Below, in pieces: positions 33,996 through 57,706 of a stretch of 64,000 nt of DNA. Origin of the DNA: Bacillales bacterium (GTDB taxonomy: Bacteria > Bacillota_I > Bacilli_A > RF39 > UBA660); assembly GCA_016292035.1 (NCBI GenBank), contig JAEEZR010000012.1:5937-69936 (forward strand). Direction: 5' to 3'. A program made the position numbers and the translations under genes. A model generated the notes under the pieces. It had not been told where the DNA came from and did no database searches. It saw only the letters and a program-made list of their open reading frames with translations. Position 1 is the stretch's first letter. Each line of letters begins with the position of its first letter.

Positions 33996-34007
33996 ATTTT
34001 CTCCTTA

Positions 34008-40675: not shown

Positions 40676-41574
40676 TATATCTTTAAATACCTCCTTACAG
40701 CATGATATGAAGCAAATGCTCCTACTACTGTTCCTATTATCATTAGTGCAATTGATATCATTAGAAGTACTTTATCTGGATTTACTAATGTTATTACTGA
40801 TGTAAATAATACTCCATCAAGTTTTTCATATAGGAATATATATCCCCAGCAGCTTATAAGAATTGGTAATAAGCTACCTAAGAATCCTAGTATTATTCCT
40901 TCAAAGAAGTAAGGTCTTTTTATATAAGAGTTAGATGCTCCTACTAACCTTTCTATTTCTATTTGTCTTTGTCTATTGTTGATTGTTATTTTAATTGTAT
41001 TTGATATTAAGAATAAAGTTACTACTCCAAGTGCTATAACGATTGTATACATTACTTTTTTTACTATGTTAAATATTTTTACTAGTTGTTCAACCATTCC
41101 TTCTCCATATTTAACTGAGTATACATGTTCTAATTCTTTTATCTTTTTTGCTGTTTTTCCTATTGTTTCTACATCTTTTACTTTTACTTCATATTCATTT
41201 AGTAGTGGATTGGTTTCATTATTATATTGACCTAATATGTTGGCTAGTTCATCACTTTCCTTAGACATACTTTTCTTTATTTCTTCATTTGATATAAATT
41301 TAATAGTATCAATATTTTCGAATTCTTCTATTTGCGCTTTTAAGTTTTGTATTTCTTCTTCTGTTGTTTCTCTTTCAATAGATACTACTATTGTTACATC
41401 TTTTTCAATATCGCTTGTAAACTTTTCTACATTAACAGTAAGTAACATTGCAACTGCTACCAAGGCTAGTGTAATTGATATACAAGATATACTTGCTATA
41501 CTAAGCGAAAAGTTTCTAAATACACTTTTAAATGCATCTTTTATGTTGTTTTTTAATATCCTAAATGGTTTCAT
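40675..41574 (-). CDS. ftsX: Cell division permease FtsX
   Basis: Four TM helices with a large first extracellular loop. 299 aa. Start overlaps the ftsE stop. Confidence 0.85.
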   Translation of the reverse strand: MKPFRILKNNIKDAFKSVFRNFSLSIASISCISITLALVAVAMLLTVNVEKFTSDIEKDVTIVVSIERETTEEEIQNLKAQIEEFENIDTIKFISNEEIKKSMSKESDELANILGQYNNETNPLLNEYEVKVKDVETIGKTAKKIKELEHVYSVKYGEGMVEQLVKIFNIVKKVMYTIVIALGVVTLFLISNTIKITINNRQRQIEIERLVGASNSYIKRPYFFEGIILGFLGSLLPILISCWGYIFLYEKLDGVLFTSVITLVNPDKVLLMISIALMIIGTVVGAFASYHAVRRYLKI

Positions 41575-42260
41575 TATTTAGTGTAACCTCCTTTTGGTGT
41601 ATCTTTTACAAGTATACCTTTTTCTAGAGTTACTACTCTTTTTTGATATTTATTAACAATATCTTTATCATGTGTTGCCATTATTACTGTTGTTCCGTCT
41701 TTGTTAATTTTATCTATTATTTCCATTATTTCTAGTGATGTTTTAGGATCTAGGTTACCAGTTGGTTCATCACAAATTAATATTCTTGGATTATTAACTA
41801 TTGCCCTTGCGATTGATACACGTTGTTGTTCTCCACCAGATAGTTTGTCAGGCATGCTTCTAAATTTATCTTTTAGTCCTACTACTTCTAGAGCCTGCAT
41901 TGTTCTTTCTCTTATTTCACTTCTTTTAAGTCCAAATATTTCTAGAGCAAATGCTACATTTTCAAATACAGTCATGTTTGGAAGAAGTTTGTAGTCTTGA
42001 TAGACTACACCTATTTTTCTTCTTATTTTGTATACTTTAGAGTTTCTTAATTTAGCAACGTTAATGCCACCTACATATACTTCACCTTTAGTTGGTTTTT
42101 CTTGTCTATATAGTAATTTTATTAGTGTACTTTTTCCAGATGCAGTTTGACCAATTATAAATACAAAATCTCCTTTTGCTATTGAAAGGTTAATATCGCT
42201 TAAAGCAGTTATACCATTTTTATATTGCTTATAAACGTTGTTTACTTCTATTAAGTTCAT
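41574..42260 (-). CDS. ftsE: Cell division ATP-binding protein FtsE (ABC ATPase)
   Basis: Walker A GQTASGKST, ABC signature LSGGEQQR, and Walker B ILICDE. 228 aa. Confidence 0.9.
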   Translation of the reverse strand: MNLIEVNNVYKQYKNGITALSDINLSIAKGDFVFIIGQTASGKSTLIKLLYRQEKPTKGEVYVGGINVAKLRNSKVYKIRRKIGVVYQDYKLLPNMTVFENVAFALEIFGLKRSEIRERTMQALEVVGLKDKFRSMPDKLSGGEQQRVSIARAIVNNPRILICDEPTGNLDPKTSLEIMEIIDKINKDGTTVIMATHDKDIVNKYQKRVVTLEKGILVKDTPKGGYTK

Positions 42261-43222: not shown

Positions 43223-43804
43223 TTATTCGATAACGTTTCTACAAGATTTACATTTTCCTGTTTTTTCAGTCAATTGATTTATAGCTCCACAGTTAGGGCA
43301 TTTAACAACACGAAAGTTTTCTGCTTTTATTTGTTGTTCTTTTAATCTCATATCATTTTCCTGAACTCTTTGTTCTTCATTTTCTAAATGAGTTGTTATT
43401 GTTTCTTTAGCATCTCGTTTTATTGATTCAATTTTACTTGTTACCTTTTCAAATAATCTACGAACAATATATCCAACTATTATTAGTATTATTCCTACTG
43501 TTATCAGTCTTTTCCCATATGGAATTAGTCCTTTATATATATCGGAATCTAATACATTTTTTAATAATGGAATATCATTTATTTTTAGTTGTTTAGTAAC
43601 AAAGTCTATCATTATTGGTACAAATAATATAAGTCCAGTAGCTATTATCCACATCATTGATTTAGAATAACTGTCTAATCTTCTATATCCTTTTTGAAGA
43701 AAGAATTTAGCTATTAATAGACATACTCCTAAAAATGGTAGGAAGTATAATACTACTAATATTACAGGTATACTAAATAAAAATTTTAATATTTTTTCTG
43801 TCAT
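43223..43804 (-). CDS. Membrane protein (2-3 N-terminal TM helices, coiled coil) with a C-terminal C-x2-C-x12-C-x2-C zinc ribbon; third gene of the YdjGHI-like module
   Basis: TM helices IPVILVVLYFLPFLGVCLLIA and WIIATGLILFVPIMI. C-terminal VKCPNCGAINQLTEKTGKCKSCRNVIE. Start overlaps the upstream gene's stop. Confidence 0.5.
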   Translation of the reverse strand: MTEKILKFLFSIPVILVVLYFLPFLGVCLLIAKFFLQKGYRRLDSYSKSMMWIIATGLILFVPIMIDFVTKQLKINDIPLLKNVLDSDIYKGLIPYGKRLITVGIILIIVGYIVRRLFEKVTSKIESIKRDAKETITTHLENEEQRVQENDMRLKEQQIKAENFRVVKCPNCGAINQLTEKTGKCKSCRNVIE

Positions 43805-45669
43805 TATTTATCATCCTTTTTAAATTCATTTACTATTTTACCAGTTACAGTACTGTTAAATGAGGAACTTATATTATCTTTTATTCCTTCTTTAGATAAG
43901 TTACTAAATATCTGGCTAGTACTTGATTGTCCAGCTACACTTCTATTGTTAGCTCCTGAAATAGTACTACTTGATAGGCCTGTTCTATGGTTTATGTACT
44001 GATCTACTTTTTGTATGTTGGACATGCTATTTTTTGTTTCTTTTTCATATGTATGTCTAGCACCTTTATTTCTATATTTTGAATATATAACGAGGAAGTA
44101 TATTACACCTGCTGCTAGAAAAACATAATCATATTCATAATCAACAAACATCATTGCAATTAATGCAATTAACTCTATTAGAGCAGATATACCAAAAAGT
44201 TTAGGCATATGAATAGGAACACTACCCATTGTTTCTTTTGTTCTAGCATTTACTGCTACATAGTGAAGTAATTGTTTATCACCTTTCTTTTCCATATAGC
44301 TATAAAGCCATACTGGAAGATAAGCTGATGCCCATTGTTGTCCTTTGACAGTTAATTCTTCTCTTTCCCATCTAACTCCTCTATCGTACTCTTCAATAGT
44401 ATCATTAGTTGAGTATCTTGCTATGTCTTTTGATTGAATCTCTACTACTGGTTTTAAGTCTTCAATATTAACATCTCTTTTTTCTGATGTATATCCTCTT
44501 AAGTAGTTAGAGTTATATTTAACACAGTTTTCTGTATCAAATGGCATTATTGCATTTATTATATTAGTTGTCTTTTCTTTGTTAGTGCTATCTAATTTAT
44601 CTTTAGAAGATTCCACTGATAAACCTTTTATAGCAATGTCAAAGTCTCTTTCAACATGATATACATCGGCATCATATCTAGTTTCACTATGATCTCCATT
44701 TTTAACTGTATATCTTCTTGTTTCTATTTCTCCTTCGCCTTTTAAATTAGCGTGTGCATTTATATCTACTAGCATATAAGGGAAATATACACCCATTATA
44801 TTTTGAGTAGTAAATTCTTCTTTAAACCTAGGGTTAGCAAAGAATTTTCTTTTGCCAACAAACTCTTCAATGCTTTTTTGAGCGTCTTCTTTAGCAACAC
44901 TAAATGGAAGAAGAGTATCAGGTACAGCTCCGTTTGGAATTGTATTATTTATAGATAATATGTTTCTGCACCAGTGACATTTGGCTTGGTTAGCACTTGC
45001 AGTATCTATTACTACTTGTGCTCCACAGCTTGTACATTTAAGTGTAATAACATCATTTGCATCAGCACTTATGTTTTGAGCACCTGATCCTATTATTTCA
45101 CCTTCCAATTTATTAACATCTTGTTCAAATACATCTAGTTTTTCTTGTTCAAATTCGCTTCTACAGTATCTACATTTTAATTTACCTGTTTTGACATTAA
45201 GTGATATGTCAGTAGCACCACAGAAAGGACATTTTACCTGTCCATCTTTAGCGCCTTCATCAGTTTTTACTACTTTTGTCTCTTCATTTGTTTTATTTTC
45301 TGCTTCTTCTGTAGAATTGACTTCTGATACAAGTGGTTTTGAGATTTTATCATAATCAATGTCTAAATTCATAGAATCTATTTTATAACTACTTATTTTT
45401 CCATTAATTATGTTCTTTAATTCCTCTTCATTAAAACTATCTTTAATATTTTCTAATGTTATCCCATCAGGATTTTTTGCCAAGAAGTCTGAAACATATT
45501 CATTTATAGAACTCCATATATCTGAAGAAATTATGTCATCAGATGGAATTTCTTTTCCTTCCTGTGGATTAATCTTTATATTTCCCTTAATAATAAATCC
45601 CATTAGGGCTTGATAGAAACTATCATTATAAGTTAAAGAAGAAGGAGATTCAAAATACATATCTTTCAT
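43804..45669 (-). CDS. Double zinc-ribbon protein with a C-terminal TM hairpin and a Ser-rich tail (YdjG-like)
   Basis: Two C-x2-C-x14-C-x2-C ribbons (VKCPFCGATDISLNVKTGKLKCRYC and LKCTSCGAQVVIDTASANQAKCHWC). TM hairpin LFGISALIELIALIAMMFV...FLAAGVIYFLVIY near residues 500-540. 621 aa. Confidence 0.5.
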   Translation of the reverse strand: MKDMYFESPSSLTYNDSFYQALMGFIIKGNIKINPQEGKEIPSDDIISSDIWSSINEYVSDFLAKNPDGITLENIKDSFNEEELKNIINGKISSYKIDSMNLDIDYDKISKPLVSEVNSTEEAENKTNEETKVVKTDEGAKDGQVKCPFCGATDISLNVKTGKLKCRYCRSEFEQEKLDVFEQDVNKLEGEIIGSGAQNISADANDVITLKCTSCGAQVVIDTASANQAKCHWCRNILSINNTIPNGAVPDTLLPFSVAKEDAQKSIEEFVGKRKFFANPRFKEEFTTQNIMGVYFPYMLVDINAHANLKGEGEIETRRYTVKNGDHSETRYDADVYHVERDFDIAIKGLSVESSKDKLDSTNKEKTTNIINAIMPFDTENCVKYNSNYLRGYTSEKRDVNIEDLKPVVEIQSKDIARYSTNDTIEEYDRGVRWEREELTVKGQQWASAYLPVWLYSYMEKKGDKQLLHYVAVNARTKETMGSVPIHMPKLFGISALIELIALIAMMFVDYEYDYVFLAAGVIYFLVIYSKYRNKGARHTYEKETKNSMSNIQKVDQYINHRTGLSSSTISGANNRSVAGQSSTSQIFSNLSKEGIKDNISSSFNSTVTGKIVNEFKKDDK

Positions 45670-45696
45670 ATTTTAATTTCCTTCTTTCTTTTGTTA

Positions 45697-46974
45697 TTAA
45701 TTATTTTCTAAGTATTGTTTTTTAGCTGCATCAAATTCTTCTTGTGATAGAACTCCTGCATCTAATAATTTTTTCATTTCAATTAATTTATCTGTAGCAC
45801 TTGCTGATGCTGCTACTGCACCTGCTTGCATTTGTTGACTTTGAGCTGCAGTTTGTTGAGCATTATTTGCATAAGCTCCTCCAGCCATTCCAGCCATGTT
45901 CATTCCCATGAAGCCCATCATAGCGCCATTTTCATTACCAGCTGCTGCTTTAAGAGCTTCTCCTTGGTATACTTGAGCCAATGATGGATTTTCTCTAAAT
46001 GCTGCACCCATTTCAGTAACTCTACCAATTTCAATTTTGTTAGATTGAACTTTCTTGTATTGTTCTTTAGTCTCTTCAGTGTAGTCAATACTACCTGCTG
46101 AAGCTTCAACTAAGATAATACCATATGTTGATAACCATCTACCATCGTTTTCGATAGCTGATGACATTGAAGCAGCAAACTTTTCTGGATGAGCTTTTAC
46201 ATATATTTTAGTGTCTGTTCCATGAATATTTGGATTGATTTCTCTTTGTTTAGCTAATTCAACTTCAGCTTCTGATGATAATAAAGCAATACCAGTTTCA
46301 AGATTCTTATTGAATGTATTCATTAATTCTCTTACTTTTGGTTCTTCATCATCATTCATATCAAATGGTTTAGCATTTGGACTTAAGTATTCATATGAAA
46401 CGAAATTTCTTATGAATAGTAATGGGTTAACGATTTGAACACCGAATGTACCATTAACTGTTGCGTCAGCTTGGATTCCCATATATGTATCCCACCAAGA
46501 TGTTGGTGATTGTGTTCCGAATGTAATACCAGTTATAGGTTTTAAATTAACATAGAATGCTAATTGTGTAGTTGCAGGAATTCCTCCAAATTTAAATTGT
46601 TCTTTTACTGCATCCCATCCACCAGCTATACCTTTTCCTAGTCCTTCACCTAAGAAGCTTGCTGAATTTGGATCATCTGTTCTAAATTCATAGTTTCCTG
46701 GTTCTGCAACACATCCAGTGATTTTTCCATCTTGGATAGTTACTAATGCATAGTTTTCTGGAACCATAATTTTACTTCCATTAGAAATTACATTATCGTT
46801 ACCATTAACGTTATGGTCTCCTCTTTCACCATTTCTTGTAACTTTTGTAGCTGGAGCTAATGCAATGTATGTTCCCATGTCTTCTCTAGGAACAAAGTAC
46901 TCCAACCATTCATTACCAAGTACTCCACCAGCAGCATCGCCGATTGTACCTACTAAATTCTTAATAAATCCCAT
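45697..46974 (-). CDS. SPFH/Band-7-family protein (Band_7_1-like, annotated in databases as virion-core-protein-like) with a C-terminal SHOCT domain (YdjI-like)
   Basis: 425 aa. The Gly/Ala/Met/Gln-rich segment and terminal DKLIEMKKLLDAGVLSQEEFDAAKKQYL match the SHOCT consensus. The N-terminal body resembles the Band_7_1 class found with PspA in B. subtilis (ydjI). Confidence 0.6.
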   Translation of the reverse strand: MGFIKNLVGTIGDAAGGVLGNEWLEYFVPREDMGTYIALAPATKVTRNGERGDHNVNGNDNVISNGSKIMVPENYALVTIQDGKITGCVAEPGNYEFRTDDPNSASFLGEGLGKGIAGGWDAVKEQFKFGGIPATTQLAFYVNLKPITGITFGTQSPTSWWDTYMGIQADATVNGTFGVQIVNPLLFIRNFVSYEYLSPNAKPFDMNDDEEPKVRELMNTFNKNLETGIALLSSEAEVELAKQREINPNIHGTDTKIYVKAHPEKFAASMSSAIENDGRWLSTYGIILVEASAGSIDYTEETKEQYKKVQSNKIEIGRVTEMGAAFRENPSLAQVYQGEALKAAAGNENGAMMGFMGMNMAGMAGGAYANNAQQTAAQSQQMQAGAVAASASATDKLIEMKKLLDAGVLSQEEFDAAKKQYLENN

Positions 46975-47067
46975 ATCTTTACCTCCTCGTATACTGAATT
47001 TATTATAGTACTTTTTTACTATTAACTTAATTTTATCATATTTTTTCTATTAACAATAGTTTTTTGT

Positions 47068-47104
47068 TAAAAATAGACATATCATTCGTCAATGATATGT
47101 CTAT
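47068..47104 (-). terminator. Strong rho-independent terminator: perfect 14-bp stem (atagacatatcatt/aatgatatgtctat), 4-nt loop, then TTTTT on the minus strand, directly after the stop of the 47109..48767 gene
   Basis: Inverted repeat at 47073..47086 and 47091..47104, loop cgtc. The A5 run at 47068..47072 gives the U-tract for the minus-strand transcript. It separates the zinc-ribbon island from the SPFH module. Confidence 0.7.
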
Positions 47105-47108
47105 TCTA

Positions 47109-48767
47109 TTATTTATTCTTTTGCCCAGTATAAATTAATTCACATTCGTCATTATAATATAAGTATGTATCTTTAGTTTCTATTCTTACATATCTTTCGT
47201 AATAATTAGCACCCCAGAATACCATATCTTTTGGAAACTTTTCTTGCTTACCTGTTACTAGATTGTAGAAATACTCTTCGTCTGTATCATTATCTGCATA
47301 CGCAATAAAATCACTTTCTGTCTTTTGAGATAAGTAATCAGTGTTAATCTCACGTTCAGATTTACCTGTTTTTGTATTAATAAGATAGCTCTTTTCATCT
47401 TTTCTACCTATTACATATGGTTTTCCTTTTGATTCAAGGTATTTATATACATATAAATCTATATATTCAATTTCATTCCATTCATACGGTACTACCACTG
47501 CTTCACCTTTGACAATTCCAATTTTTCCGTTATTATTTTGCCTTTTCATTTTTGTATATTCTTCCCACTTATCTATTTTTTCTTCTTTTTTTATGGTGCT
47601 ATAATTTACGAACTTTTTAGAATTGACATCAAGGTATTTATAATTATAATTCTTTGAATCATAGATTGATATATATCCTTTTGCATATATATCAATTCTT
47701 CCGTTTTCATCGGTAGTTTCATATGCTATTTGATCATTAGCTGCATATATTCTCTTAACGAAATCATAGTTTGAATCATGGATTTCAAATATATTATTAT
47801 CTTCATCTTCTATTCTTGAGTCTGTGAAGTCATATACTACTTTTCCTGTGTCACAACTGACTATAGCTCTTTTATCTTCTACGCGTACAATACAGTAGCG
47901 TTCTGTTAAATAACTACTTCTCACATCTGATTGTGTATAATCAAAGTAATCTCCATCTTGTAAGTCAGCTGTATATGTTATCTTTCCATCTTTAGTCATT
48001 ATACCAGCCTTTTTACCATCAGCTGATTCCCATTTTAAGTAATGTTGTTTTATTAATAATGATGATTTCTTTGAAACTTTTATCCCCTCTTGTGTTAGTG
48101 GTTTTAAAGACTTATCATACAGTCTTCCATCAATAATCCAGTTACCTGTTTCACTTTCTATTTCAATTTCATTTTCATACTTTCTGACTACATTTCCTTT
48201 TGTATCTATTATTTCTTTATTATCAAGTATTGCAGCGTAGTTGCCATTAAAATCGCTTGCGTATTCGTACTTTGGCTCTACTATTACTTTACCTTCTAGA
48301 TTTATATATCCAAATTTTCCATTGTTTAACACTCTTATAATCTTATCACTTGAAAAATTTGATAGTTCTTCTTTTTGAGAAAAAGGTTTTTTTATAACTA
48401 TATATGCAATAGCAGCTATTAATACTAGCACTATTACAATTGGCACTATAGGTTTCTTTTTTTGATTCTGATTATTGTTTACTCTTTGTTCATCTTGATT
48501 ACCATAAGCCGGTTGTGGATTAGCAGGTGCTGGGTTTTGTACTTGATTTGAATAAGTATTAGTTACCTCTGAGGCTGCCTGTTCACCATTAACTTGTGGT
48601 TCAGGTGTGGCAGCTATTGGTGCTGACACTCCCATATTATTTGCATTTTGATTGCTTAAAAAATTTGCTTGCGGAGTTTCAACTTGTCCTTCTTGTTTTT
48701 TTCCACAGAAAGGACAAAACTCTGCTTCGTCATTTATAAAATTATTACAATTATTACATTTTTTCAT
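47109..48767 (-). CDS. Zinc-ribbon single-pass membrane protein with a WG-repeat ectodomain
   Basis: MKKCNNCNNFINDEAEFCPFCG, a Pro/Gln/Asn-rich linker, and TM IVPIVIVLVLIAAIAYIVI. GKFGYINLEGKVIVEPKYEYASDFNGNYAAI fits the WG-containing repeat consensus (GkwGyId..Gk.vI.p.yd.a..F..G.A.v). 552 aa. Confidence 0.6.
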   Translation of the reverse strand: MKKCNNCNNFINDEAEFCPFCGKKQEGQVETPQANFLSNQNANNMGVSAPIAATPEPQVNGEQAASEVTNTYSNQVQNPAPANPQPAYGNQDEQRVNNNQNQKKKPIVPIVIVLVLIAAIAYIVIKKPFSQKEELSNFSSDKIIRVLNNGKFGYINLEGKVIVEPKYEYASDFNGNYAAILDNKEIIDTKGNVVRKYENEIEIESETGNWIIDGRLYDKSLKPLTQEGIKVSKKSSLLIKQHYLKWESADGKKAGIMTKDGKITYTADLQDGDYFDYTQSDVRSSYLTERYCIVRVEDKRAIVSCDTGKVVYDFTDSRIEDEDNNIFEIHDSNYDFVKRIYAANDQIAYETTDENGRIDIYAKGYISIYDSKNYNYKYLDVNSKKFVNYSTIKKEEKIDKWEEYTKMKRQNNNGKIGIVKGEAVVVPYEWNEIEYIDLYVYKYLESKGKPYVIGRKDEKSYLINTKTGKSEREINTDYLSQKTESDFIAYADNDTDEEYFYNLVTGKQEKFPKDMVFWGANYYERYVRIETKDTYLYYNDECELIYTGQKNK

Positions 48768-48776
48768 TTTTCCTCC

Positions 48777-51404
48777 TTATAAGCCCAAATTCTTTAAATC
48801 TTTTTCTAGCGATTCGCTCATTCTTATTACGCTTCCAGTCTCCGTATAGTAATCATTTGCTTCGGTAGCACATGAGCTTTTTTTAGTATTACATACCATG
48901 GTTAAATATCTTTTTGCTCCTGGGTGATTGCTGTCATATACAGCAATGAAATATTTATTATTATCATTGATATCTTGTATCATACTGATAGCATTTACTG
49001 CATGGTTTTCGCCCGAATAATTCCCACCTATTACAACTGGATCTTTTGCTCTTAGTCTATTTATTAGTGCACCTGTAAAATATATTCCGTTTTTCATTGT
49101 AACATCATTTATGTTTAATATGTCCCTCTTAACAACTTCAAACGAATTTCCTGATGACAGTACTTCTTTATACTTGTTCATTTGTTGAGAATGCATATGG
49201 TATATGCTTTTAAACAACTCTTTCTCATCTTGTGTTATTTGATTTGTTTCCGAAAGCTTACTTTCTAATAGTTTATAAACCTCATATTCATCATAATTAG
49301 GTCTGGAAGAAATACTTTTTGTTTCTATCTTATATATTCCTGAGTTTATCATTGTGTCTCTGTAGTCATTTGAAAGTTGTAAAACTCTATCAACTGGTTT
49401 TGGATCCCATCTATTTTGCTCTTCTTCTCCAAAAGCTGCTGATCCTACTGCATATTTTAAAATATTTGATGTTAGTTTATAATCATATAGATTCTTATAT
49501 GATGTTAAATGACTATTTGTTAATTTGTACTCTGGGGCTGTTGTACCATACGGATTGTCCTTGTTAACAAATCTTGTTGCTGCAGAAGTCTCGATTTCTC
49601 TGCTTGCTAAACTCATTGGTAATTTCTTCACATAATATAATTCTGCGAATAGAGCCATTCCATGGCAGTGGCCCCCCGAAACATCCGTAGTATAGTTATG
49701 AAACGAAAATCCATCTCTGCTTGCAGTAAATCCACTGTCTGCCACTAGCAAGCCTTCATATATTCCATCTCCATCTATGTCTACCAGCCCATCATTAACT
49801 GCTGTTTCTACCTTTTGAAGTGTTTCATCAAGTCCACTGACATCTGAAGAAGAATAGAATTCGCATCCAGTCTCTTCTGAAATTTCTTTTAGGTCTTCGT
49901 TCTTTGAGCCTTCACCAAATCCTACTGCACAGACTTTAGCTCTGTTTAGAGTAGCTTTATTAATTAGACTCTTTTTATCATATTTAAGGCTACTGTCTTC
50001 TCCGTCTGTGAGTAAGATTACAATTTTGTTATCTGTATCTGAATTAAATTCTTTTATTGATTTTTCAATTGCTTCACTTATATCAGTTCCTGCACTTCTA
50101 GTTATGAATGTTCCGTTCATTGCTGATACTTTATCTGATATTGTTTTATAATCTTGTCCAATGCCCACCAAAGATGCATAATCCGCTCTGAATTCAGATA
50201 CTCCAACACTGTATCCTTTATCTATAAACTTCTTTGATAATTCTTTAGTTAAATCAAATCTTCTTCCTTCAGTGTCTGAAGCTGATAATGGAGTAGCTGT
50301 TCCACCAAATAAAGTATCCCACCAACTTCCTGTATATTCTTCTCCAGTTATTTCTTTATATTGAGCATTAGAATACATGCTCCATGAATTATCTAAAACA
50401 AATAGCACTTCTGTTGTATTACTTTCTTTTACTTCGTCTTTATCTCCAACTACATACATTGAAAAGTGTTCTAAGTTCGCTGTTACTCTTTTACTATTCT
50501 TGTCTACTTTTGACTCAACTGGCTCATATGTGCCTTTTTCTACATTATAGTAATAAATAGTTAGATTCTCTTCTTTAATATTATACTTTGTTAACTCTTC
50601 ATCAGTATAGCTAATTGTCATCTCTATCTTATCTAGCTTTGCGTTTGAGTGTATAGAGTACAACTTATTTATTAGACCATTTTTCTTTGATATTGCTGTA
50701 TCATCTATGATGTTTGCACTTAATCCAGCTAAATTTCCTTTACCTGTTAAATTGATTTCCAAATTTTCATTCTTATAGTTATATGTTAAAGTTCTTTGTG
50801 AGTCATTAACGCCATCACCTTTTGAATCTGTTTTTAACGGATCTAGTTCTAACAGTACTTCATCATAATCACTTACTGTGTCCCCATCAGTGTCCTTCTT
50901 TAGCGGATCTGTCTTACTAACATTTAATTCGTAATAATCTGGGAGACCATCTAAATCTGTGTCTGACAATTCCGGATTAGTGCCTTTTTCTTTTTCTTCT
51001 TTATTAGTAAGGCCATCATTATCAGTGTCATCATTATCACTTAAAACAATTTCATATCCCGAACCTAGATCAGCAGTAAAATCTTTAATTACTTCTAATT
51101 TGATTTTTATTCTATCTTTTTTATATGTTGCTGTAATAGTACACGTTTTTCCTTTTTCTTTTGTTAAATCCCAAACTACTTCTAATTCGTTTTGAGTTAT
51201 TTCACCACATGTAGAATTAAACTTTACTTTTGTAGGGTCTTCGCCCTCTATAAGTGATACTTTTAGTTTTACTTTTACCGGTGTGACTATTCCGTCTTCT
51301 ATATCGGAGTAAGTTTTATCCCAGCTTATTGCTTTTGGACCAAAAAAGTAAAAATATGCGAAAATACCAGAAGCTATTAGTACTATTGCTAACAATATTA
51401 TCAC
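48777..51404 (-). CDS. Single-pass membrane protein with thrombospondin-type-3-like Ca-binding D-x-D-x-D-G repeats, a VWA domain with a MIDAS motif, and a C-terminal Cys/His-containing domain. The N-terminal zinc ribbon is detached by a frameshift (see 51407..51502).
   Basis: (V)IILLAIVLIASGIFAYFYFF TM. DTDNDGLTNKEE, DTDLDGLPDYYE and DTDGDTVSDYDE repeats. VLFVLDNSWSM (D-x-S-x-S MIDAS) and ILLTDGED. GGHCHGMA near the C-terminus. The ORF-track start is GTG. Confidence 0.6.
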   Translation of the reverse strand: MIILLAIVLIASGIFAYFYFFGPKAISWDKTYSDIEDGIVTPVKVKLKVSLIEGEDPTKVKFNSTCGEITQNELEVVWDLTKEKGKTCTITATYKKDRIKIKLEVIKDFTADLGSGYEIVLSDNDDTDNDGLTNKEEKEKGTNPELSDTDLDGLPDYYELNVSKTDPLKKDTDGDTVSDYDEVLLELDPLKTDSKGDGVNDSQRTLTYNYKNENLEINLTGKGNLAGLSANIIDDTAISKKNGLINKLYSIHSNAKLDKIEMTISYTDEELTKYNIKEENLTIYYYNVEKGTYEPVESKVDKNSKRVTANLEHFSMYVVGDKDEVKESNTTEVLFVLDNSWSMYSNAQYKEITGEEYTGSWWDTLFGGTATPLSASDTEGRRFDLTKELSKKFIDKGYSVGVSEFRADYASLVGIGQDYKTISDKVSAMNGTFITRSAGTDISEAIEKSIKEFNSDTDNKIVILLTDGEDSSLKYDKKSLINKATLNRAKVCAVGFGEGSKNEDLKEISEETGCEFYSSSDVSGLDETLQKVETAVNDGLVDIDGDGIYEGLLVADSGFTASRDGFSFHNYTTDVSGGHCHGMALFAELYYVKKLPMSLASREIETSAATRFVNKDNPYGTTAPEYKLTNSHLTSYKNLYDYKLTSNILKYAVGSAAFGEEEQNRWDPKPVDRVLQLSNDYRDTMINSGIYKIETKSISSRPNYDEYEVYKLLESKLSETNQITQDEKELFKSIYHMHSQQMNKYKEVLSSGNSFEVVKRDILNINDVTMKNGIYFTGALINRLRAKDPVVIGGNYSGENHAVNAISMIQDINDNNKYFIAVYDSNHPGAKRYLTMVCNTKKSSCATEANDYYTETGSVIRMSESLEKDLKNLGL

Positions 51405-51406
51405 TA

Positions 51407-51502
51407 TTAATTTTTATTTATTGGTTTTCTTTTTTTAGCGCCACATCCCGGACAGAATGCCGCTTCCTCTGGAATTGCTATTCCACATTTTTTACAGTTC
51501 AT
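51407..51502 (-). CDS. Stand-alone 31-aa zinc-ribbon mini-ORF (MNCKKCGIAIPEEAAFCPGCGAKKRKPINKN), the detached N-terminal anchor of the downstream VWA protein. Followed by TAA-TAG-TGA in its own frame.
   Basis: Same C-x2-C-x10-C-x2-C-G plus basic linker as the other island paralogs. It is one A short of being in frame with 48777..51404 at the A5 run 51411..51415. Confidence 0.5.
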   Translation of the reverse strand: MNCKKCGIAIPEEAAFCPGCGAKKRKPINKN

Positions 51503-51520
51503 ATTCTACTCCTTTTTATA

Positions 51521-53893
51521 TTAAACACTTTTTGCATTGTCCACAATTACTTGTGGGATTTCCACATCTCCAGCTTTATCATAATTTGAAAATTCTATTG
51601 TTGCTGTAAACAGTTCCATAGTATCTATCATATCAGAAAAATCATATTCTAGTTTTGTGATATAACCATTTTCTGTGTAGACATCTACATATACATCACC
51701 TTTTATTGCTGATGTATCTGCTTTTGCATCGTTCATTAAACCTTCAATATCTTTCTTACTCATTTTTACTTTATAATGGTTTTTTGATACTGTTTGGACA
51801 TCTTTCATGGTTGTTAACTGATTTAGTATTTTTTTTAAGTCTACCAGTTGCGATGTTCCTTTTTCTTTCCACCATGTATCTCCTCCGAAAGGTTGAGTCA
51901 TATAAGTTATCCCTGAATTGAAGTCATAATATAGCTTACTTGATAGTGTCATACCTAGAGTTGTATTATCGGAATCTAAGTATTCTTTTTGATGGAGTTC
52001 ATCAACTGTACCTTTTGAATGTGATTCAACTTCTATTCCAATTACTTTAGTGTGCATTGTTACTTCTATATTATAGTTTTTAAATGAAGTATTGTATTCA
52101 CTATTTTTTACTACCTTGCTGTTTTTTACGTCGATAGTATAACTATATGTAGTAGTTATGTCACCATTTGTTACTACTAGGTAAATGTTATCATAAGTTA
52201 CATACAAGGCAGTATCAACCTCTAGTTCACTTGATGTCTTTTTTAATTCCTTATAGTAACCATTTTTCTCTCCATAAAGAATTATAGTTAAGTATTCATT
52301 ATTATTTACTGATACTTTTAATTCAGTCTTTTCTCCTAATTTGAAGTAGTCAATAGAACCTTCTCCAATTACGATGTTATATGTTTTTTGTTCGTTAATT
52401 TCTTGCTTATCACTAATTCCCATGTTAGATATTAGTGACTTATTATCATAATTTTGGCTTAGTGTGTAGTATGCCAAATCATTTATTGTGTTAATTAATT
52501 CCTCTTTAGAAGCATTATTTCTTATGTATTTAAATGGTTTTTCTTGATAGTGGGCATTCATTAATATTTCAGCCCAGTTGCTTACATTCTGAGAGAATGA
52601 ATAATAATATGGGAAAATTCCATACCCAAGATAGCCTGATTTATTAGCAACATTTGCAAGGTTATTACTAGTTGCCTTCGTATATATTCCGGCCCAATTA
52701 TTTAGATAATTGTTAGTAGAGTTTACATTGCTAACTTTTACACTTGCAAAGTTTGCCATTCCTTCAGTTATTAATTCTGGTGAAGTACATCTATCTTTAG
52801 TATTAGCTTTGCAATATAGGTATTGCATGTGATGAAACAATTCATGATTAGCTAACTGAACTAAGCTATCTAAACCATCAGAAAAGCCTCTCTTGTTTAT
52901 AACAATATAAGGATAGTTTATTATGCCATCTTCATCTAGAATATCAAGAAACAATGATCTGTTAATCCATTTTTTTGCATCAACTTCGTCTTCATAAGAG
53001 GCTAGTGTGCTATCACTTCCAGTGTCATAAACATACACACTCATGGCAGTTTTTAATATGTCTTTAGGCATATTATTTTGTTCAAGTACTGTCTTTGCTT
53101 TTTTCCAATCCTCATTAAATACTTTGTTATCAACGTATGGACTATAAATGTATTCAATACCAAATTCCTGTTCATACATATTAACACTATTTTCTAATGT
53201 GTCAGATATTAGTTTTAACTGCTCCTGTGTAATTGCATCTTCTCCATCACTTGCATACCATATTAGGAAGTTATTTTTAGATGATAAATATACATTATTT
53301 AGTCTATGATTATATGTATTACTTTTATCTTCCTCGTTACTTAAGAATTGCACTTTATAGCTACTTTTAGAACTATTTGATTGTTGAACATTAGATTTTT
53401 CTTCACCAAGTGATACATTAATCAATAATTTATTCTCCAAATAAAACTTAACTATGTTTTCGTCTAGTTCATCGTAATGATTTTCTAGTAACTCTGTTGT
53501 TTCAAATTCACATCCTGAAGTGTGATAGTTATAGTCTGATTGATATTTGGAATTTAATTTTTCTGTTGAAAACTCTAAGTACACTAACTCAGTGAAATAA
53601 TCCTTTGTACTTAAATTTCCATTTTCATAATCTTTTTTTATTTTTTCTAGCGAGTTTAATTTTTCGGATTCAACTATAGTTTGGTTGTTACTATTGTTGT
53701 CCTTATTCTCATTATTATTTTCCGTTTTTTGAAGTATGAAGTACGCTAGCACTCCCGCAGCTATTATAACTAAAAGAACTAGCAAAATAATAATCTTGCT
53801 AGAGAATGATTTTTTTCTTTCAATTTTATTTCCGCAGTTTGGACAGAATTCTACATTATTATCTACCTGTGTGCTGCAATTACTACACTTCAT
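51521..53893 (-). CDS. Zinc-ribbon single-pass membrane protein with a large ectodomain containing an HExxH (zincin-like) motif
   Basis: MKCSNCSTQVDNNVEFCPNCG, a basic linker, and TM IIILLVLLVIIAAGVLAYFIL. NHELFHHMQY is encoded at 52826..52846 (HExxH at 52832..52846). 790 aa. Confidence 0.55.
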   Translation of the reverse strand: MKCSNCSTQVDNNVEFCPNCGNKIERKKSFSSKIIILLVLLVIIAAGVLAYFILQKTENNNENKDNNSNNQTIVESEKLNSLEKIKKDYENGNLSTKDYFTELVYLEFSTEKLNSKYQSDYNYHTSGCEFETTELLENHYDELDENIVKFYLENKLLINVSLGEEKSNVQQSNSSKSSYKVQFLSNEEDKSNTYNHRLNNVYLSSKNNFLIWYASDGEDAITQEQLKLISDTLENSVNMYEQEFGIEYIYSPYVDNKVFNEDWKKAKTVLEQNNMPKDILKTAMSVYVYDTGSDSTLASYEDEVDAKKWINRSLFLDILDEDGIINYPYIVINKRGFSDGLDSLVQLANHELFHHMQYLYCKANTKDRCTSPELITEGMANFASVKVSNVNSTNNYLNNWAGIYTKATSNNLANVANKSGYLGYGIFPYYYSFSQNVSNWAEILMNAHYQEKPFKYIRNNASKEELINTINDLAYYTLSQNYDNKSLISNMGISDKQEINEQKTYNIVIGEGSIDYFKLGEKTELKVSVNNNEYLTIILYGEKNGYYKELKKTSSELEVDTALYVTYDNIYLVVTNGDITTTYSYTIDVKNSKVVKNSEYNTSFKNYNIEVTMHTKVIGIEVESHSKGTVDELHQKEYLDSDNTTLGMTLSSKLYYDFNSGITYMTQPFGGDTWWKEKGTSQLVDLKKILNQLTTMKDVQTVSKNHYKVKMSKKDIEGLMNDAKADTSAIKGDVYVDVYTENGYITKLEYDFSDMIDTMELFTATIEFSNYDKAGDVEIPQVIVDNAKSV

Positions 53894-53915
53894 TCTTTTT
53901 CCCTACCTTTAGTTG

Positions 53916-54953
53916 TTAGTTAAACATGTTCATTATTCCGTTTAGTCCATCTGTTATAGAACTAGTAACAGCTGATGTAATTAGGTGCATTCCTAAATAA
54001 TATCCTGCTATTGCTAGAATTGCAAAGCATATAGAATTGAATAGTATTTTACTATCATTATTTTCAAATTCAAATTGTTCATTTACTAATGTAATAAATA
54101 TTGCTAAAGAGTACACTGCTGATGCAATTGTTAGTATCATTGATAGTGGTGCCCATATATATCCTAAAATTGTAGATACAAATAGTGAAACTGCTGCTGC
54201 TGGAAGTACTGCTACTGATGATATTGCTAGTAGTCTAGTAAACTTAGCTTGTTTTTTGAATATTAATCCAGCAACATAGAATACTATTGCAAGTGATAGT
54301 ATTATTCCTGCTCCCATTAATATACTTGTGAATATTAATTTTAGATATTCTACATTCTTAAGATTTTCGAATGATACAATTAGTGATTTAGTGCAGAATA
54401 AAGTAGAGCATTTAACAAATACTGCTGTTATTAATCCTCTTAATATATTTAATACTGCTATTACACCTGCTGTTATTCCAGCGAAAGTAAATAAAGTCTT
54501 TTTATCATCAAAGCTTTCTTCAGCTTCTTTATATTTGCTATTTGGTTTGATTACTGCATAAAGCATAAACATAAAGTAATCTTTTATAGCTGCAAATTTA
54601 GAAGTTGATACTGTTTGAGTAGCACTAGATACATTTACTTGTGGAGCAGATGGTGCTACATATTCTTTAGTTGGTTCAACCGCAGGAGCAGGATTAACCA
54701 CTTCTTCTACTGGTGTAGATGGTTTAATATTACTGTATTCATTTCTTACTTGTTCAGTTAAATCACTCATTATTTCTGTACGTGATTCTGGTTCAACTGG
54801 CGCTACTTGTTCTGCTACAGTTTGCACTTCAACAGTGTTTACTGTTTGTGCTGTTAAAGGGCTTCCACACTTTATGCAAAAGCTATTTCCTGGTGTGTTT
54901 TCATATCCACAATTATTACATTTCATTTTAATACCTCTTTCTTCAATAGCCAT
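53916..54953 (-). CDS. Zinc-ribbon protein fused to a Yip1-like multi-pass membrane domain. The likely true start is the internal MKCNNCG at 54926, which has an AGAGGT RBS.
   Basis: MKCNNCGYENTPGNSFCIKCG, a Pro/Val/Glu-rich linker, then five TM helices in a Yip1/DUF1282-like arrangement. Confidence 0.55.
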   Translation of the reverse strand: MAIEERGIKMKCNNCGYENTPGNSFCIKCGSPLTAQTVNTVEVQTVAEQVAPVEPESRTEIMSDLTEQVRNEYSNIKPSTPVEEVVNPAPAVEPTKEYVAPSAPQVNVSSATQTVSTSKFAAIKDYFMFMLYAVIKPNSKYKEAEESFDDKKTLFTFAGITAGVIAVLNILRGLITAVFVKCSTLFCTKSLIVSFENLKNVEYLKLIFTSILMGAGIILSLAIVFYVAGLIFKKQAKFTRLLAISSVAVLPAAAVSLFVSTILGYIWAPLSMILTIASAVYSLAIFITLVNEQFEFENNDSKILFNSICFAILAIAGYYLGMHLITSAVTSSITDGLNGIMNMFN

Positions 54954-54972: not shown

Positions 54973-55002
54973 ATTATATTATATAGCAATATAGCTTGTA
55001 AA
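54973..55002 (-). promoter_or_regulatory. Candidate sigma-A promoter (TTTACA -N18- TATAAT on the minus strand) in the 64-bp gap between rlmH and the first zinc-ribbon gene
   Basis: -35 at 55002..54997 and -10 at 54978..54973, read on the minus strand. AT-rich background makes chance matches likely. Confidence 0.3.
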
Positions 55003-55017
55003 CAAAAAACATACCAT

Positions 55018-55455
55018 TTACTTATGATATGTTTCATTATTCATTATTTTAAATGCTCTATATATTTGTTCTAGAAGTATTATTCTAAATAATCCATGTG
55101 GAAATGTTAATCTTGAAAAAGATATTAATTTATTTGATAGGGCTTTTATTTAACTATGTATACCATCAGAACCACCTATTATAAATGTTATATTTGAGTT
55201 TCCATTTATTAGATTATTATTTATTAAATCTTTAAATTCTATAGTATTTAATGTTTCTCCTTCGATTGCTAATGATATTATATAATCTTTATTACTTAGG
55301 TGCTTCTTTATTTCTTCTTTTTCTTCATTTATATTGGAGTCTTTTAGTTCGATTATCTCTATCTTGTGATATTTAGTTAATCTTTTTAGATAATCATTTA
55401 CTGCATCTTTTAGATAATCTTCTTTTAATTTTCCTACTACTATTATTTTTATCAC
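55018..55455 (-). pseudogene. rlmH: 23S rRNA (pseudouridine1915-N3)-methyltransferase RlmH interrupted by an in-frame TAA at 55150..55152. N-terminal 101 codons at 55153..55455; the C-terminal 43 codons continue in the same frame to the TAA at 55018..55020.
   Basis: The N-part MIKIIVVGKLKEDYLKDAVNDYLKRL...ITFIIGGSDGIHS is followed in frame, after TAA, by [43 protein letters not shown]. This aligns residue for residue with the SPOUT C-terminus of RlmH ([35 protein letters not shown]). Start overlaps the upstream MBL gene (ATGA). Confidence 0.7.
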
Positions 55456-56207
55456 TTTGATACCTCCAAGATGCTAGTTTCTGAAGCACATTCTTTTACT
55501 TTGAAGTTTACTTCATTTTCCTTTAGTATTCTATTTACTGTTTTAAGTGCTATGTCTGGAGTGTTATTAGTTTCTGAAAGGTGCGCGAGTATTACTTTTT
55601 TTGTGTTTGGGCCTATTATTCTAGATAGATATCCTGCTGCTAATTCGTTTGATAAGTGGCCTTTATCGCTCACTATTCTTTGCTTTAGTATTTCTGGATA
55701 TGGTCCTTTCTTTAACATTTCAGGATCATGATTGCTTTCAAATATGTAGTATGTTTTATCAGTAATTAATTTAAAGTATTTATGATTAATGTATCCAGTA
55801 TCTGTTATATAAACTAGACTTTCACTATCTTTTTCTATCAAGTATCCATTTGATGTAATTGCATCATGGCTTGTAGGTATTATTTTTATAGTAGCTCCTT
55901 TTATAAATATTTCATCTTCCAGATATATACTATCTTCATATTTTCCTAGTAATTCTTTTTCTATTTCTTTGCTTATATAAAGCATTGGTTTTACTTTATT
56001 AAGCAAGACTTTAAGACCACTCGTATGGTCTGAGTGGTCATGTGTTATTAGAACTAGTTCTATATCTTTTATATCGACATCTATTTCGTTTAGTCTTTCT
56101 CTTATCTTATTGTAAGAAATTCCTGCATCTATAAGAACTTTAACACTTCCTAAGTCCACATATGTGCAGTTTCCCTTTGAGCCACTAGCTAGTACTACTA
56201 CTCTCAT
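55452..56207 (-). CDS. MBL-fold metallo-hydrolase (YycJ/WalJ-like)
   Basis: HxHxDH motif (ITHDHSDHTSG). 251 aa. Conserved position upstream of rlmH, as in the Firmicute walJ-rlmH neighbourhood. Confidence 0.8.
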   Translation of the reverse strand: MRVVVLASGSKGNCTYVDLGSVKVLIDAGISYNKIRERLNEIDVDIKDIELVLITHDHSDHTSGLKVLLNKVKPMLYISKEIEKELLGKYEDSIYLEDEIFIKGATIKIIPTSHDAITSNGYLIEKDSESLVYITDTGYINHKYFKLITDKTYYIFESNHDPEMLKKGPYPEILKQRIVSDKGHLSNELAAGYLSRIIGPNTKKVILAHLSETNNTPDIALKTVNRILKENEVNFKVKECASETSILEVSK

Positions 56208-57706
56208 TAGTTATAAGCTAGTTTAAATGGATCCATGTGTTGTCCATAGTATTCAACTTGGAAGTGTAAGTGAGCACCAAAAGAGTATCCTGTGTTACCC
56301 ATGTATCCAATTACTTGTCCTTTACCAACTATAGTATTTACTGATATTCCACTTGCAAATCCACTCAAGTGCATGTATTTTGTAACATATTCTTCGTTGT
56401 GTCTTAAGTGAATATAGTTTCCTTCAGTACTATTGTATCCTACTGATATGATAGTTCCTGTTTGAGCAGCATATATTGGTGAACCATAACCAGTTCCTGA
56501 TATGTCTATTCCTTTGTGGAAACCGTTTATACCTAGCTCTAGGTCTACTCTGTATCCGTAGTCACTTGTAATTACGTATGGTTTGTTTGTTGGCCAGTAC
56601 CATCCACCTGTGTCTCCTAGATAGTGTAGTGGAAGTCCACCTTTTACTACTACCTCATTTATTACTGGTGTTTTTACTAGTGTTTCAAGAGGCACTACCT
56701 GAGTCATTTGACCGTTTATAGTTTCAATATAGTATGATACTACACTTTCTCCATCAGATCCTTTTTGCTCAGTATAAGTTGTACCTGCTAAAAGTTTATC
56801 ATTATATCTAACTTCTTTTGAGTGTTGTACTTTTTTCTTTTCTATAAGATTCTTTTCTACAACTATTCCTATTATTGGATTTACTAGTCCAACATTTACT
56901 TCTTGTCCACTATATAAAAGTGCATTTGGACTTGTTATGCTAGGATTAACTATTAAGAATTCAGTTACATTAAGTTGATAATTATTAGCTATTTCTTTTA
57001 TAGTTTCACCTGTTCTTACTGTATGTACTCCTGGTTTTTCAGTTGTTCCAAATAGTAAGTATTTAGATAGTTCATTAGCATCCTTGAATATTTGCTCTTT
57101 TACAGAAATATATTTTTCTTTAGTTGTTATTTCCTCTTTTATTTTTATATTTTCTATTCTGCTTAATGGTTCGTCACCAACACTTGCTGATACTTTTATT
57201 ACTTCTTGTGTCCCATCTATGTATGAAGTATATTCTTTGTCTCCTACAAAAGCTTTTATTGTATTCTCTACGGCTTTATCGAAGTCTTCTAGATGTATTA
57301 CATTTATTGTTTCATAATCATCTTCACTTCTCTTAATAGAGATTTCATATCCTTTTATTGTGAAACTTTCTGTTTCTTTAACTTTTTTATATACATCTTT
57401 TACATCATCTACCTCTCCTTCATAAGTAACTACTTTACTTATTTCTAGATCGTTAGGCGCATAGACTTTATCTACATTATATTCTTTTTTTATCTTTTCT
57501 TGTTCTTTATCTATTAATTTGTATAATTCATCTTTATCTTCTATTATACCGATTTTATTTCCAGATAAATATACTTGATAAACCGTAATGGGTCCGTTAT
57601 TTAGAGTTTTTCTATCAATGCCCATTATAAATATAAGTGCGGTTAATATTACTAAAAAAACCCCCAGCTTATAAATAGTTTTTTTATTCATTATTAATTT
57701 CATCAC
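56207..57706 (-). CDS. M23 family peptidoglycan DD-metalloendopeptidase with a LysM domain
   Basis: N-terminal TM, LysM (HTVRTGETIKEIANNYQLNVTEFLIVNP), and C-terminal M23 (FHKGIDISG...GAHLHFQV). 499 aa. Confidence 0.8.
   Translation of the reverse strand: MMKLIMNKKTIYKLGVFLVILTALIFIMGIDRKTLNNGPITVYQVYLSGNKIGIIEDKDELYKLIDKEQEKIKKEYNVDKVYAPNDLEISKVVTYEGEVDDVKDVYKKVKETESFTIKGYEISIKRSEDDYETINVIHLEDFDKAVENTIKAFVGDKEYTSYIDGTQEVIKVSASVGDEPLSRIENIKIKEEITTKEKYISVKEQIFKDANELSKYLLFGTTEKPGVHTVRTGETIKEIANNYQLNVTEFLIVNPSITSPNALLYSGQEVNVGLVNPIIGIVVEKNLIEKKKVQHSKEVRYNDKLLAGTTYTEQKGSDGESVVSYYIETINGQMTQVVPLETLVKTPVINEVVVKGGLPLHYLGDTGGWYWPTNKPYVITSDYGYRVDLELGINGFHKGIDISGTGYGSPIYAAQTGTIISVGYNSTEGNYIHLRHNEEYVTKYMHLSGFASGISVNTIVGKGQVIGYMGNTGYSFGAHLHFQVEYYGQHMDPFKLAYN

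Follow-up and report, generated by a model that had tools for sequence, protein, structure and literature searches.

The window analyzed here is a stretch of 64,000 nucleotides (29% G+C) from a Bacillales bacterium (assembly GCA_016292035.1, contig JAEEZR010000012.1, positions 5,937 to 69,936). Seven genes on its minus strand fill the space between rlmH and a YitT-family gene, after which come ftsE and ftsX; judged by sequence, these seven genes appear to be a rearranged copy of a conserved gene cassette (43223-54953). Four of them, g1-g4, form an island of membrane proteins headed by a zinc ribbon; the three next to the island, n2, n1, and n3, encode an SPFH protein and two further ribbon-bearing membrane proteins. 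Two more ribbon-first genes, g5 and g6, lie between gap and pgk. What the analysis adds is the cassette itself, ribbon-rich, conserved, and arranged around a YdjI/YdjG-like SPFH module without pspA; the anchor that its members share is already known. We propose, with confidence that is evenly balanced, that the island is an operon of ribbon-first orthologues with cytoplasmic N-termini and that, together with the SPFH operon, it constitutes a rearranged, variable cassette in which the ribbons serve as docking handles.

The ribbons were located by a regular-expression scan of all six frames, which recovered the exact motif C-x2-C-x10-C-x2-C inside the first 13 residues of g1, g2, g3, g4, g5, and g6 (residues 3-13 in g1-g4). 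Residue shuffles of the 47 open reading frames (ORFs) of at least 150 amino acids place the chance expectation at 0.0005 N-terminal motifs per window, against five observed plus that of the split gene g3, and a chance origin of the six motifs is excluded. All six ribbons also match the Pfam family Zn_Ribbon_1 (PF13240), three of them above its gathering score of 25 bits (g1, 30.1; g2, 25.2; g3, 27.5) and three below it (g4, 16.8; g5, 16.5; g6, 16.8), with a 23-residue model that has little power. The first-pass annotation had counted five island genes and seven ribbon copies; the shared motif is real, but the island comprises four genes (five ORFs) and the window six N-terminal copies. Further C4 ribbons occur internally in n1 (two; 43804-45669) and at the C-terminus of n3 (one; 43223-43804).

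Each of the six ribbons is followed by a strongly hydrophobic segment (hydropathy peaks 2.0-3.5) with a cluster of lysines and arginines on its N-terminal side, amounting to 3-8 such residues within the 15 that precede the transmembrane (TM) segment. The motif and the TM segment had been described together with a short KKRK-like linker and a single membrane pass; the short basic linker is restricted to g2 and g3, and g1 is polytopic with about five TM segments. In g1, g4, g5, and g6 the linker instead runs to 55-130 residues of low complexity, rich in proline, glutamine, asparagine, and glutamate, with a basic patch at its end. An orientation with the N-terminus inside is plausible for the six proteins because of the positive-inside rule, a Cys4 site that no signal peptide precedes, and the presence of TSP3 and MIDAS domains. 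Calcium-binding (TSP3) and MIDAS (VWA) domains are typical of extracytoplasmic proteins. The anchor predicted earlier, N-terminus in and C-terminus out, is thus plausible from sequence, and the five divergent domain types listed with it hold: Yip1, an HExxH gluzincin, TSP3 plus VWA, WG repeats, and a pilin-associated Cys-rich module. The data support the conclusion that six genes combine the same kind of N-terminal zinc ribbon and membrane anchor with unrelated extracytoplasmic domains.

To place the island in context, we compared all window proteins with loci surrounding g3 orthologues, obtained through exact-protein look-ups and a metagenome scan (loci are cited by number with the prefix L). 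The recurrent order, on one strand and with gaps of a few bases, is an SPFH gene with a SHOCT domain (n2), n1, ribbon-Yip1 (g1), a WG gene (g4/g6), at least one variable gene, ribbon-VWA (g3), and n3. All six conserved families are found in L016 and L029, and partial cassettes are missing n3 (L048), the WG gene (L038, L054), or both (L019); the Yip1-WG-VWA triad is present in L007, L012-14, L022, L026, and L042-45. Of the VWA loci, 24 are non-redundant and include 3 kb or more of upstream sequence; a ribbon-Yip1 gene lies no more than 5 kb upstream on the same strand in 12 of these and a WG gene in 8. The orthologue of g2, the HExxH gene, belongs to the cassette in three of five independent contexts, taking the position of VWA (L060, L066) or standing beside SPFH-n1 (L062). 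The window holds both of these alternative large ectoproteins, and its order is rearranged to Yip1-HExxH-VWA-WG followed by SPFH-n1-n3. PspA is absent from the ORFs of 43223-54953, all of which are accounted for, and from the recorded Pfam matches for the called genes of L007, L012, L060, L062, and L066.

The three SPFH-operon families follow the same pattern. Orthologues of n2 (32-40% identity) come first in the cassette of L016, L019, L029, L033, L038, L048, L054, and L060; in L031 and L062, they have the VWA or HExxH gene as a neighbor. The cassette of L066 is likewise headed by a Band_7_1+SHOCT gene, identified by Pfam only. The most conserved member of the cassette is n1 (49-63% identity), and n3 orthologues (36-42%) directly follow the VWA gene in L007, L016, L017, L021, L029, and L038. 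The cassette as a whole seems undescribed, the ribbon handle itself being known already; we found no account of it in the open-access literature, comparative papers on the PSP system included, which is not proof of novelty.

These comparisons also bear on how the island arose. It had been presented as a lineage-specific expansion of paralogous surface proteins with a common sorting or docking element, an explanation that we now regard as unlikely and, for g1-g4, largely refuted. Several features do speak for it: six ribbon-first genes among 47 long ORFs compare with roughly 1-3% in related loci, the adjacent genes g5 and g6 have ribbons with 59% identity across the compared non-Cys positions, g4 and g6 both belong to the WG proteins, and the slot after rlmH is variable. 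Yet g1-g4 are each orthologous, at 30-62% identity over their full length, to a widespread family, and each has full-length orthologues that carry their own ribbon and co-occur in many other genomes. Within the window, the ribbons are just 12-35% identical at the 17 non-Cys positions compared, g5 and g6 excepted, and only these two look recently copied. At about 22% identity, the duplication that separates g4 from g6 must be old, and the island displays neither a compositional shift nor flanking repeats.

The ribbons themselves tell the same story. The exact motif heads 23 of 23 Yip1, 6 of 6 HExxH, and 30 of 45 VWA orthologues. For WG homologues, the 100 top-ranking representatives (E < 1e-30) were drawn from an exhaustive search across 1.84 billion, and 43 of them start with the motif. 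At the 17 non-Cys positions compared, the g1 ribbon shares 40% identity with Yip1-family ribbons and 22% with VWA and HExxH ones. From these sequence comparisons, the ribbon is an old part of each family that is lost now and then, not one that recently spread through this genome. We had also considered a gain of the WG ribbons within this lineage, as 1 of 16 cassette-linked WG proteins carries one; the exhaustive search, with its 43 of 100, overturned that idea.

Within the SPFH operon, n2 (45697-46974, minus strand) encodes a soluble, YdjI-like SPFH protein of the Band_7_1 family (PF13421; 29.3 bits, cutoff 24); the protein ends in a SHOCT domain and has no hydrophobic segment. Its neighbor n1 (43804-45669, minus strand) combines two internal C4 ribbons with a middle domain of about 250 residues and one or more C-terminal TM segments, and is YdjG-like by description. 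The third gene, n3 (43223-43804, minus strand), encodes a small polytopic membrane protein of 193 residues that ends in a C4 ribbon and has no TPM match. Together, n2, n1, and n3 make up a second tight unit that ends at a terminator-like hairpin (43224-43202, minus strand).

By analogy with the studied SPFH module of Bacillus subtilis, the docking of ribbons to an SPFH scaffold, and with it a physiological role, could be pictured as follows. Membrane partners that bear ribbons would keep the SPFH protein n2 on the cytoplasmic side of the membrane, in the way that YdjG and YdjH retain YdjI. Zinc-stabilized ribbons, displayed on juxtamembrane tails of varying length, would act as protein-protein handles and bring n1, n3, and the Yip1, WG, VWA, and peptidase proteins together beneath an SPFH lattice. 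In this way, extracellular domains for binding and hydrolysis would become clustered and coupled to a scaffold for envelope maintenance. A bolder version, which we think doubtful, treats the ribbon as an address tag: its carriers would be recruited through the adaptors n1 and n3 into a PspA-free, YdjI-type SPFH assembly, with ectoproteins swapped in and out of a single cassette. Were it true, gut and rumen Bacilli would be building an interchangeable, scaffold-organized surface machine from VWA and WG binding modules and peptidases.

A number of observations weigh against the docking proposal. Of the VWA orthologues, 15 of 45 are without the ribbon, as are 57 of 100 WG homologues, and it is therefore dispensable in many lineages. 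Linkage is frequent and not obligate: VWA orthologues stand alone in L008, L015, L024, L034, L037, L041, and L056, and SPFH/n1 genes accompany only 4 of the 17 VWA loci that have at least 7 kb of upstream sequence. Both g5 and g6 carry the ribbon and lie 8 kb from the cassette. The island and the SPFH operon are probably, from their sequence signals, two transcripts with a strong hairpin between them. The analogy to B. subtilis is partial, in that the window has no pspA and that n3 is polytopic with a C-terminal ribbon and, unlike YdjH, is not a TPM-domain protein; moreover, the middle domain of n1 matched no Pfam family. Finally, direct contact of any ribbon with the SPFH protein or n1 is a prediction, indirectly supported by the linkage to an SPFH/YdjG-like module.

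Many of the same facts would be expected under the main rival explanation, which we hold to be possible, if on balance improbable. Here, the PF13240 ribbon is a generic zinc-stabilized cap at the N-terminus that fixes the N-in topology and stabilizes type II membrane proteins of Firmicutes, and the genes cluster through co-regulation of envelope proteins, not through docking to a common partner. A structural, stabilizing role for the zinc module is the one preferred by the authors of work on Lactococcus lactis (PMC4628341), and the ribbon accompanies unrelated ectodomains, among them YARHG in 73 proteins (PMC3355149) and that of TcaA (PMC10328498). In the fetched loci, 11 of 397 non-cassette ORFs bear it; its loss in many orthologues, the position of g5 and g6 outside the cassette, and the facultative linkage all fit as well. 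However, five to six families recur together on one strand with few-base gaps even where the orthologues are only 30-45% identical, a degree of conserved linkage that exceeds what co-regulation usually preserves, and the core proteins n1 and n3 bear ribbons too.

The individual members of the island repay a closer description. Gene g1 (53916-54953, minus strand) encodes an N-terminal zinc ribbon, an acidic, proline-rich linker of about 120 residues, and the Yip1-like polytopic domain. Its true start is likely the ATG at 54926, which yields MKCNNCG as in all orthologues and has an AGAGG Shine-Dalgarno sequence upstream. The match of g1 itself to Yip1 (PF04893) falls slightly short of the gathering score (26.6 against 28.6 bits), and the family is clear in the orthologues (recorded matches at E <= 1e-5), which are 25-39% identical and occur in L007, L012, L016, L019, L022, L029, and other loci.

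Gene g2 (51521-53893, minus strand) encodes a zinc ribbon, a KKS linker, and one TM helix (residues 32-56 in the structure model), followed by a gluzincin-type metallopeptidase domain, a beta-sandwich, and a LolA/LprG-like domain. The peptidase domain displays HELFH at residues 350-354 and a downstream glutamate, Glu377. The HExxH motif and its downstream Glu ligand are conserved across the family and sit on a thermolysin-like fold, as in the gluzincins (clan MA), and the g2 family is probably one of gluzincin peptidases. Nearly all of its 53 homologous matches are 31-62% identical; PDB sequence searches returned no match for g2 or for n2.

Gene g3 is split by a frameshift into a 5' fragment (51407-51502, minus strand) that encodes the ribbon and basic linker and a main ORF (48777-51404, minus strand) that encodes the TM segment, an Ig-like domain, TSP3 repeats, a beta-sandwich, the VWA domain, and a C-terminal domain. 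The 5' ORF closes with ...AAT AAA AAT TAA, and the main ORF continues in the -1 frame. Reading from the sequence, one A added to the A5 run at 51411-51415 (minus strand) would fuse both ORFs and restore MNCKKCGIAIPEEAAFCPGCGAKKRKPINKKLIVIILL..., a continuous ribbon-KKRKPINKK-TM protein. A search with g3 gave 491 matches at E <= 0.001, of which the best 120 are 39-47% identical and mostly have PF13240 fused N-terminally; therefore, the window copy derives by frameshift from an ancestral gene that was intact. In the NCBI-derived annotation, the product (P0001) is a truncated protein of 875 residues begun at an internal GTG. The stop and this downstream GTG are arranged as TAA-ta-GTG (51402-51415), and termination-reinitiation here could, on sequence grounds, yield a TM-anchored protein without the ribbon. 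Either sequencing error or real decay would account for the frameshift, as for the stop codon in rlmH described below.

Both TSP3_bac and VWA are matched in g3 by Pfam, the latter (PF00092) with the DxSxS...T...D metal site and an intact MIDAS motif (DNSWS). Its C-terminal domain (residues about 540-875; 48777-49790) contains an invariant GHCxGMA, whose Cys580 lies where a helix begins, and a likewise invariant His801/Asn804 pair located on a strand. This Cys/His/Asn pattern suggests a candidate papain-like peptidase; the last 330 or so residues had no Pfam or PDB sequence match, and the g3 profile retrieved only VWA domains in the PDB.

Gene g4 (47109-48767, minus strand) encodes a zinc ribbon, a linker of about 80 residues rich in asparagine, glutamine, and proline, one TM segment, and a WG-repeat ectodomain (WG_beta_rep, PF14903; 38.0 bits, cutoff 25.6). 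Over their first codons, g4 and g1 (48747-48778 and 54909-54940) have 15 bases in common, AAATGTAATAATTGT, that code for KCNNC, and this stretch probably reflects codon bias in an AT-rich genome, not recent exchange. No family-level names were obtained from NCBIfam.

Peptidase-like domains in the cassette invite another explanation, in which the carriers are membrane-tethered regulators whose nucleic-acid-binding ribbon is freed by regulated proteolysis when the ectodomain senses a ligand. That hypothesis has been put forward for ribbon-YARHG proteins (PMC3355149), and zinc ribbons of the TFIIB/TFIIS type do bind nucleic acids. We nevertheless judge it very unlikely for the window proteins: the ribbon is about 22 residues long with no adjoining helix-turn-helix or other DNA-binding domain, the linkers are of low complexity, the carriers include enzymes and a polytopic Yip1 protein, and the cassette includes no site-2 protease or sigma factor.

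The two ribbon genes outside the cassette, g5 and g6, sit inside a glycolytic gene cluster (33168-35816, minus strand), with the start of g6 overlapping the stop of gap by 14 nt. Gene g5 (33168-33995, minus strand) encodes a ribbon, linker, TM segment, and a Cys-rich module found elsewhere on prepilin-type proteins. The label "pilin-associated" given to this module proved correct: it is 45% identical to that of P0175, which lies among other pilin-like genes, and the N-termini of P0175 and P0177 are prepilin N_methyl motifs. Gene g5 has only the C-terminal module in common with these two proteins; its own N-terminus is the ribbon, with no prepilin N_methyl (PF07963) or G-F-T-L-x-E motif, and by sequence it appears to be a case of anchor swapping. 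Gene g6 (34008-35816, minus strand) encodes a ribbon, linker, TM segment, and WG-type ectodomain and is a distant paralogue of g4. Its ectodomain has no Pfam match, and BLAST matched it to WG orthologues of the cassette with E values down to 2e-41.

Signals around the island are in keeping with a single transcription unit. The gaps g1-g2, g2-g3, and g3-g4 measure 22, 18, and 9 nt, and AGGAG-type ribosome-binding sites precede g3 and g4. After g4, a terminator-like hairpin (47070-47107, minus strand) has a 17-bp stem followed by UUUUAAC and a folding energy of -19.9 kcal/mol (z = -8.5). On the other side, the rlmH-g1 spacer includes a promoter-like site (TTTACA-18-TATAAT, 11/12; 54973-55002, minus strand), which is a consensus match only, in a region where the count of such sites is not above shuffle expectation. 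The tight packing reported by the first-pass annotation is thus borne out, as is the variable slot after rlmH. In the synteny relatives L001 and L003, drawn from a GTDB scan that used the YycJ neighbor and only about 50% identical, dnaB-M23-yycJ-rlmH and then yitT-ftsE-ftsX-M23 are kept (in L003 also whiA, clpP, udk, and gap) with unrelated genes between them.

Such a slot could also house an anti-phage defense island or a secretion-system accessory, the explanation to which we give the lowest probability of all. In its favor, a g2 orthologue follows type VII secretion genes in L058 (1-9897; FtsK_SpoIIIE/EssC-like, WXG100, and DUF4176), and a DUF4176 gene lies just upstream of the cassette in L007 (5893-6270). 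On the other hand, PADLOC produced no meaningful match for any of the nine proteins, most cassette loci are without type VII secretion genes, and the composition of the island is native.

The cassette is flanked on both sides by cell-wall hydrolase machinery, with FtsE, FtsX, and a PcsB-like coiled-coil M23 peptidase at 39500-42260 and a LysM-G5-M23 peptidase at 56207-57706 (both minus strand). The adjacent rlmH gene (55009-55455, minus strand) is interrupted by an in-frame TAA at 55150-55152; with this stop read through, the match to the SPOUT_MTase profile spans its whole length (E = 1e-47), and rlmH is either a pseudogene or the product of an assembly error. YycJ-like MBL-fold genes that are 40% identical to the window copy also occur in L004 and L005, high-GC contigs labeled as Methanomicrobiales metagenome-assembled genomes and unrelated to the finding reported here. 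The window includes a Spo0A gene (31109-31894, minus strand; receiver domain plus Spo0A_C, E = 6e-38), and the organism therefore belongs to an endospore-forming lineage; CotE genes adjoin the cassette in L007 and L062.

The window is without one more companion of the cassette, a membrane-anchored protein of roughly 300 residues with barrels like those of EF-Tu domains 2/3. In at least 10 loci, its gene immediately follows that of VWA, HExxH, or n3; these include L007 (13440-14351), L016 (13198-14154), L054 (12576-13463), L060 (12512-13360), L062 (12329-13090), and L066 (12364-13245). Among the copies inspected, those of L016 and L054 start with a ribbon.

Very many membrane proteins of Firmicutes are headed by an N-terminal ribbon and annotated only as "zinc ribbon domain-containing protein," and one of them, TcaA, is clinically relevant. 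The repeated placement of several ribbon-first proteins beside an SPFH scaffold and ribbon-bearing adaptors gives rise to a testable hypothesis, namely that the ribbon is a docking handle, and extends the YdjI/YdjG SPFH module beyond the PspA context. Two large families without annotation can likewise be assigned probable activities, gluzincin peptidase and MIDAS binding, from their sequences. Because the cassette is carried by Bacilli of gut and rumen that are uncultured, its immediate value lies in annotation and hypotheses, not in mechanism.

The likeness of the ribbon handle to TcaA-type proteins of Firmicutes, noted at first pass, is well founded, and the anchor is already described in the literature. 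Llmg_0524 and Llmg_0526 of L. lactis are encoded in one operon, have an N-terminal CX2CX10CX2C, and bind zinc; Llmg_0524 affects cell-wall integrity, deletion of its motif causes a growth defect and changes lysozyme resistance, and Llmg_0526 resembles Staphylococcus aureus TcaA (PMC4628341). In the TcaA model, the zinc finger is intracellular and the bulk of the protein extracellular (PMC10328498). Like the window genes, all three have the motif at the extreme N-terminus with the same 10-residue spacing and a cytoplasmic ribbon succeeded by a TM segment and a large outside domain. Their phenotypes are tied to the cell envelope. The ectodomains differ, and in the window four ribbon genes stand side by side in linkage with an SPFH module. 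The ribbon-TM-YARHG proteins, catalogued in 2012 as an architecture restricted to Gram-positives (PMC3355149), similarly place PF13240/PF12773 ribbons at the N-terminus, before one TM segment and an extracytoplasmic domain, but the ectodomain is another one and no cassette or SPFH linkage has been reported for them.

Two of the ectoproteins can be compared with known families in their own right. Relative to M30 peptidases (hyicolysin/lugdulysin) and other gluzincins, g2 is only 11% identical in sequence, has no Pfam match, and adds the beta-sandwich and LolA/LprG-like domains; it is anchored by ribbon and TM segment, in contrast to the M30 type, which is secreted with a propeptide. Relative to BatA-BatB-type and adhesin VWA domains, g3 adds the ribbon anchor, TSP3 repeats, and the C-terminal Cys/His domain.

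By analogy, the closest studied system to the cassette as a whole appears to be the YdjI/YdjG SPFH module of B. subtilis. YdjI is a soluble Band_7_1 SPFH protein whose membrane localization requires YdjG and YdjH (PMC8581546), and YdjG is composed of two zinc ribbons, an NTF2-like domain, and a TM segment (PMC11237479). As in pspA-ydjGHI, the window has a soluble Band_7_1 SPFH gene next to the gene for a membrane protein with two ribbons and a TM segment, the SPFH protein is without a membrane anchor of its own, and a third, small membrane protein is present. They differ in that n2 ends in SHOCT and YdjI in a zinc ribbon, and in that n1 is about 280 residues longer than YdjG, the likeness of these two being by description and consisting of two ribbons and a C-terminal TM segment. 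To the ydjGHI module, the cassette adds a set of ribbon-anchored Yip1, WG, VWA, and peptidase proteins.

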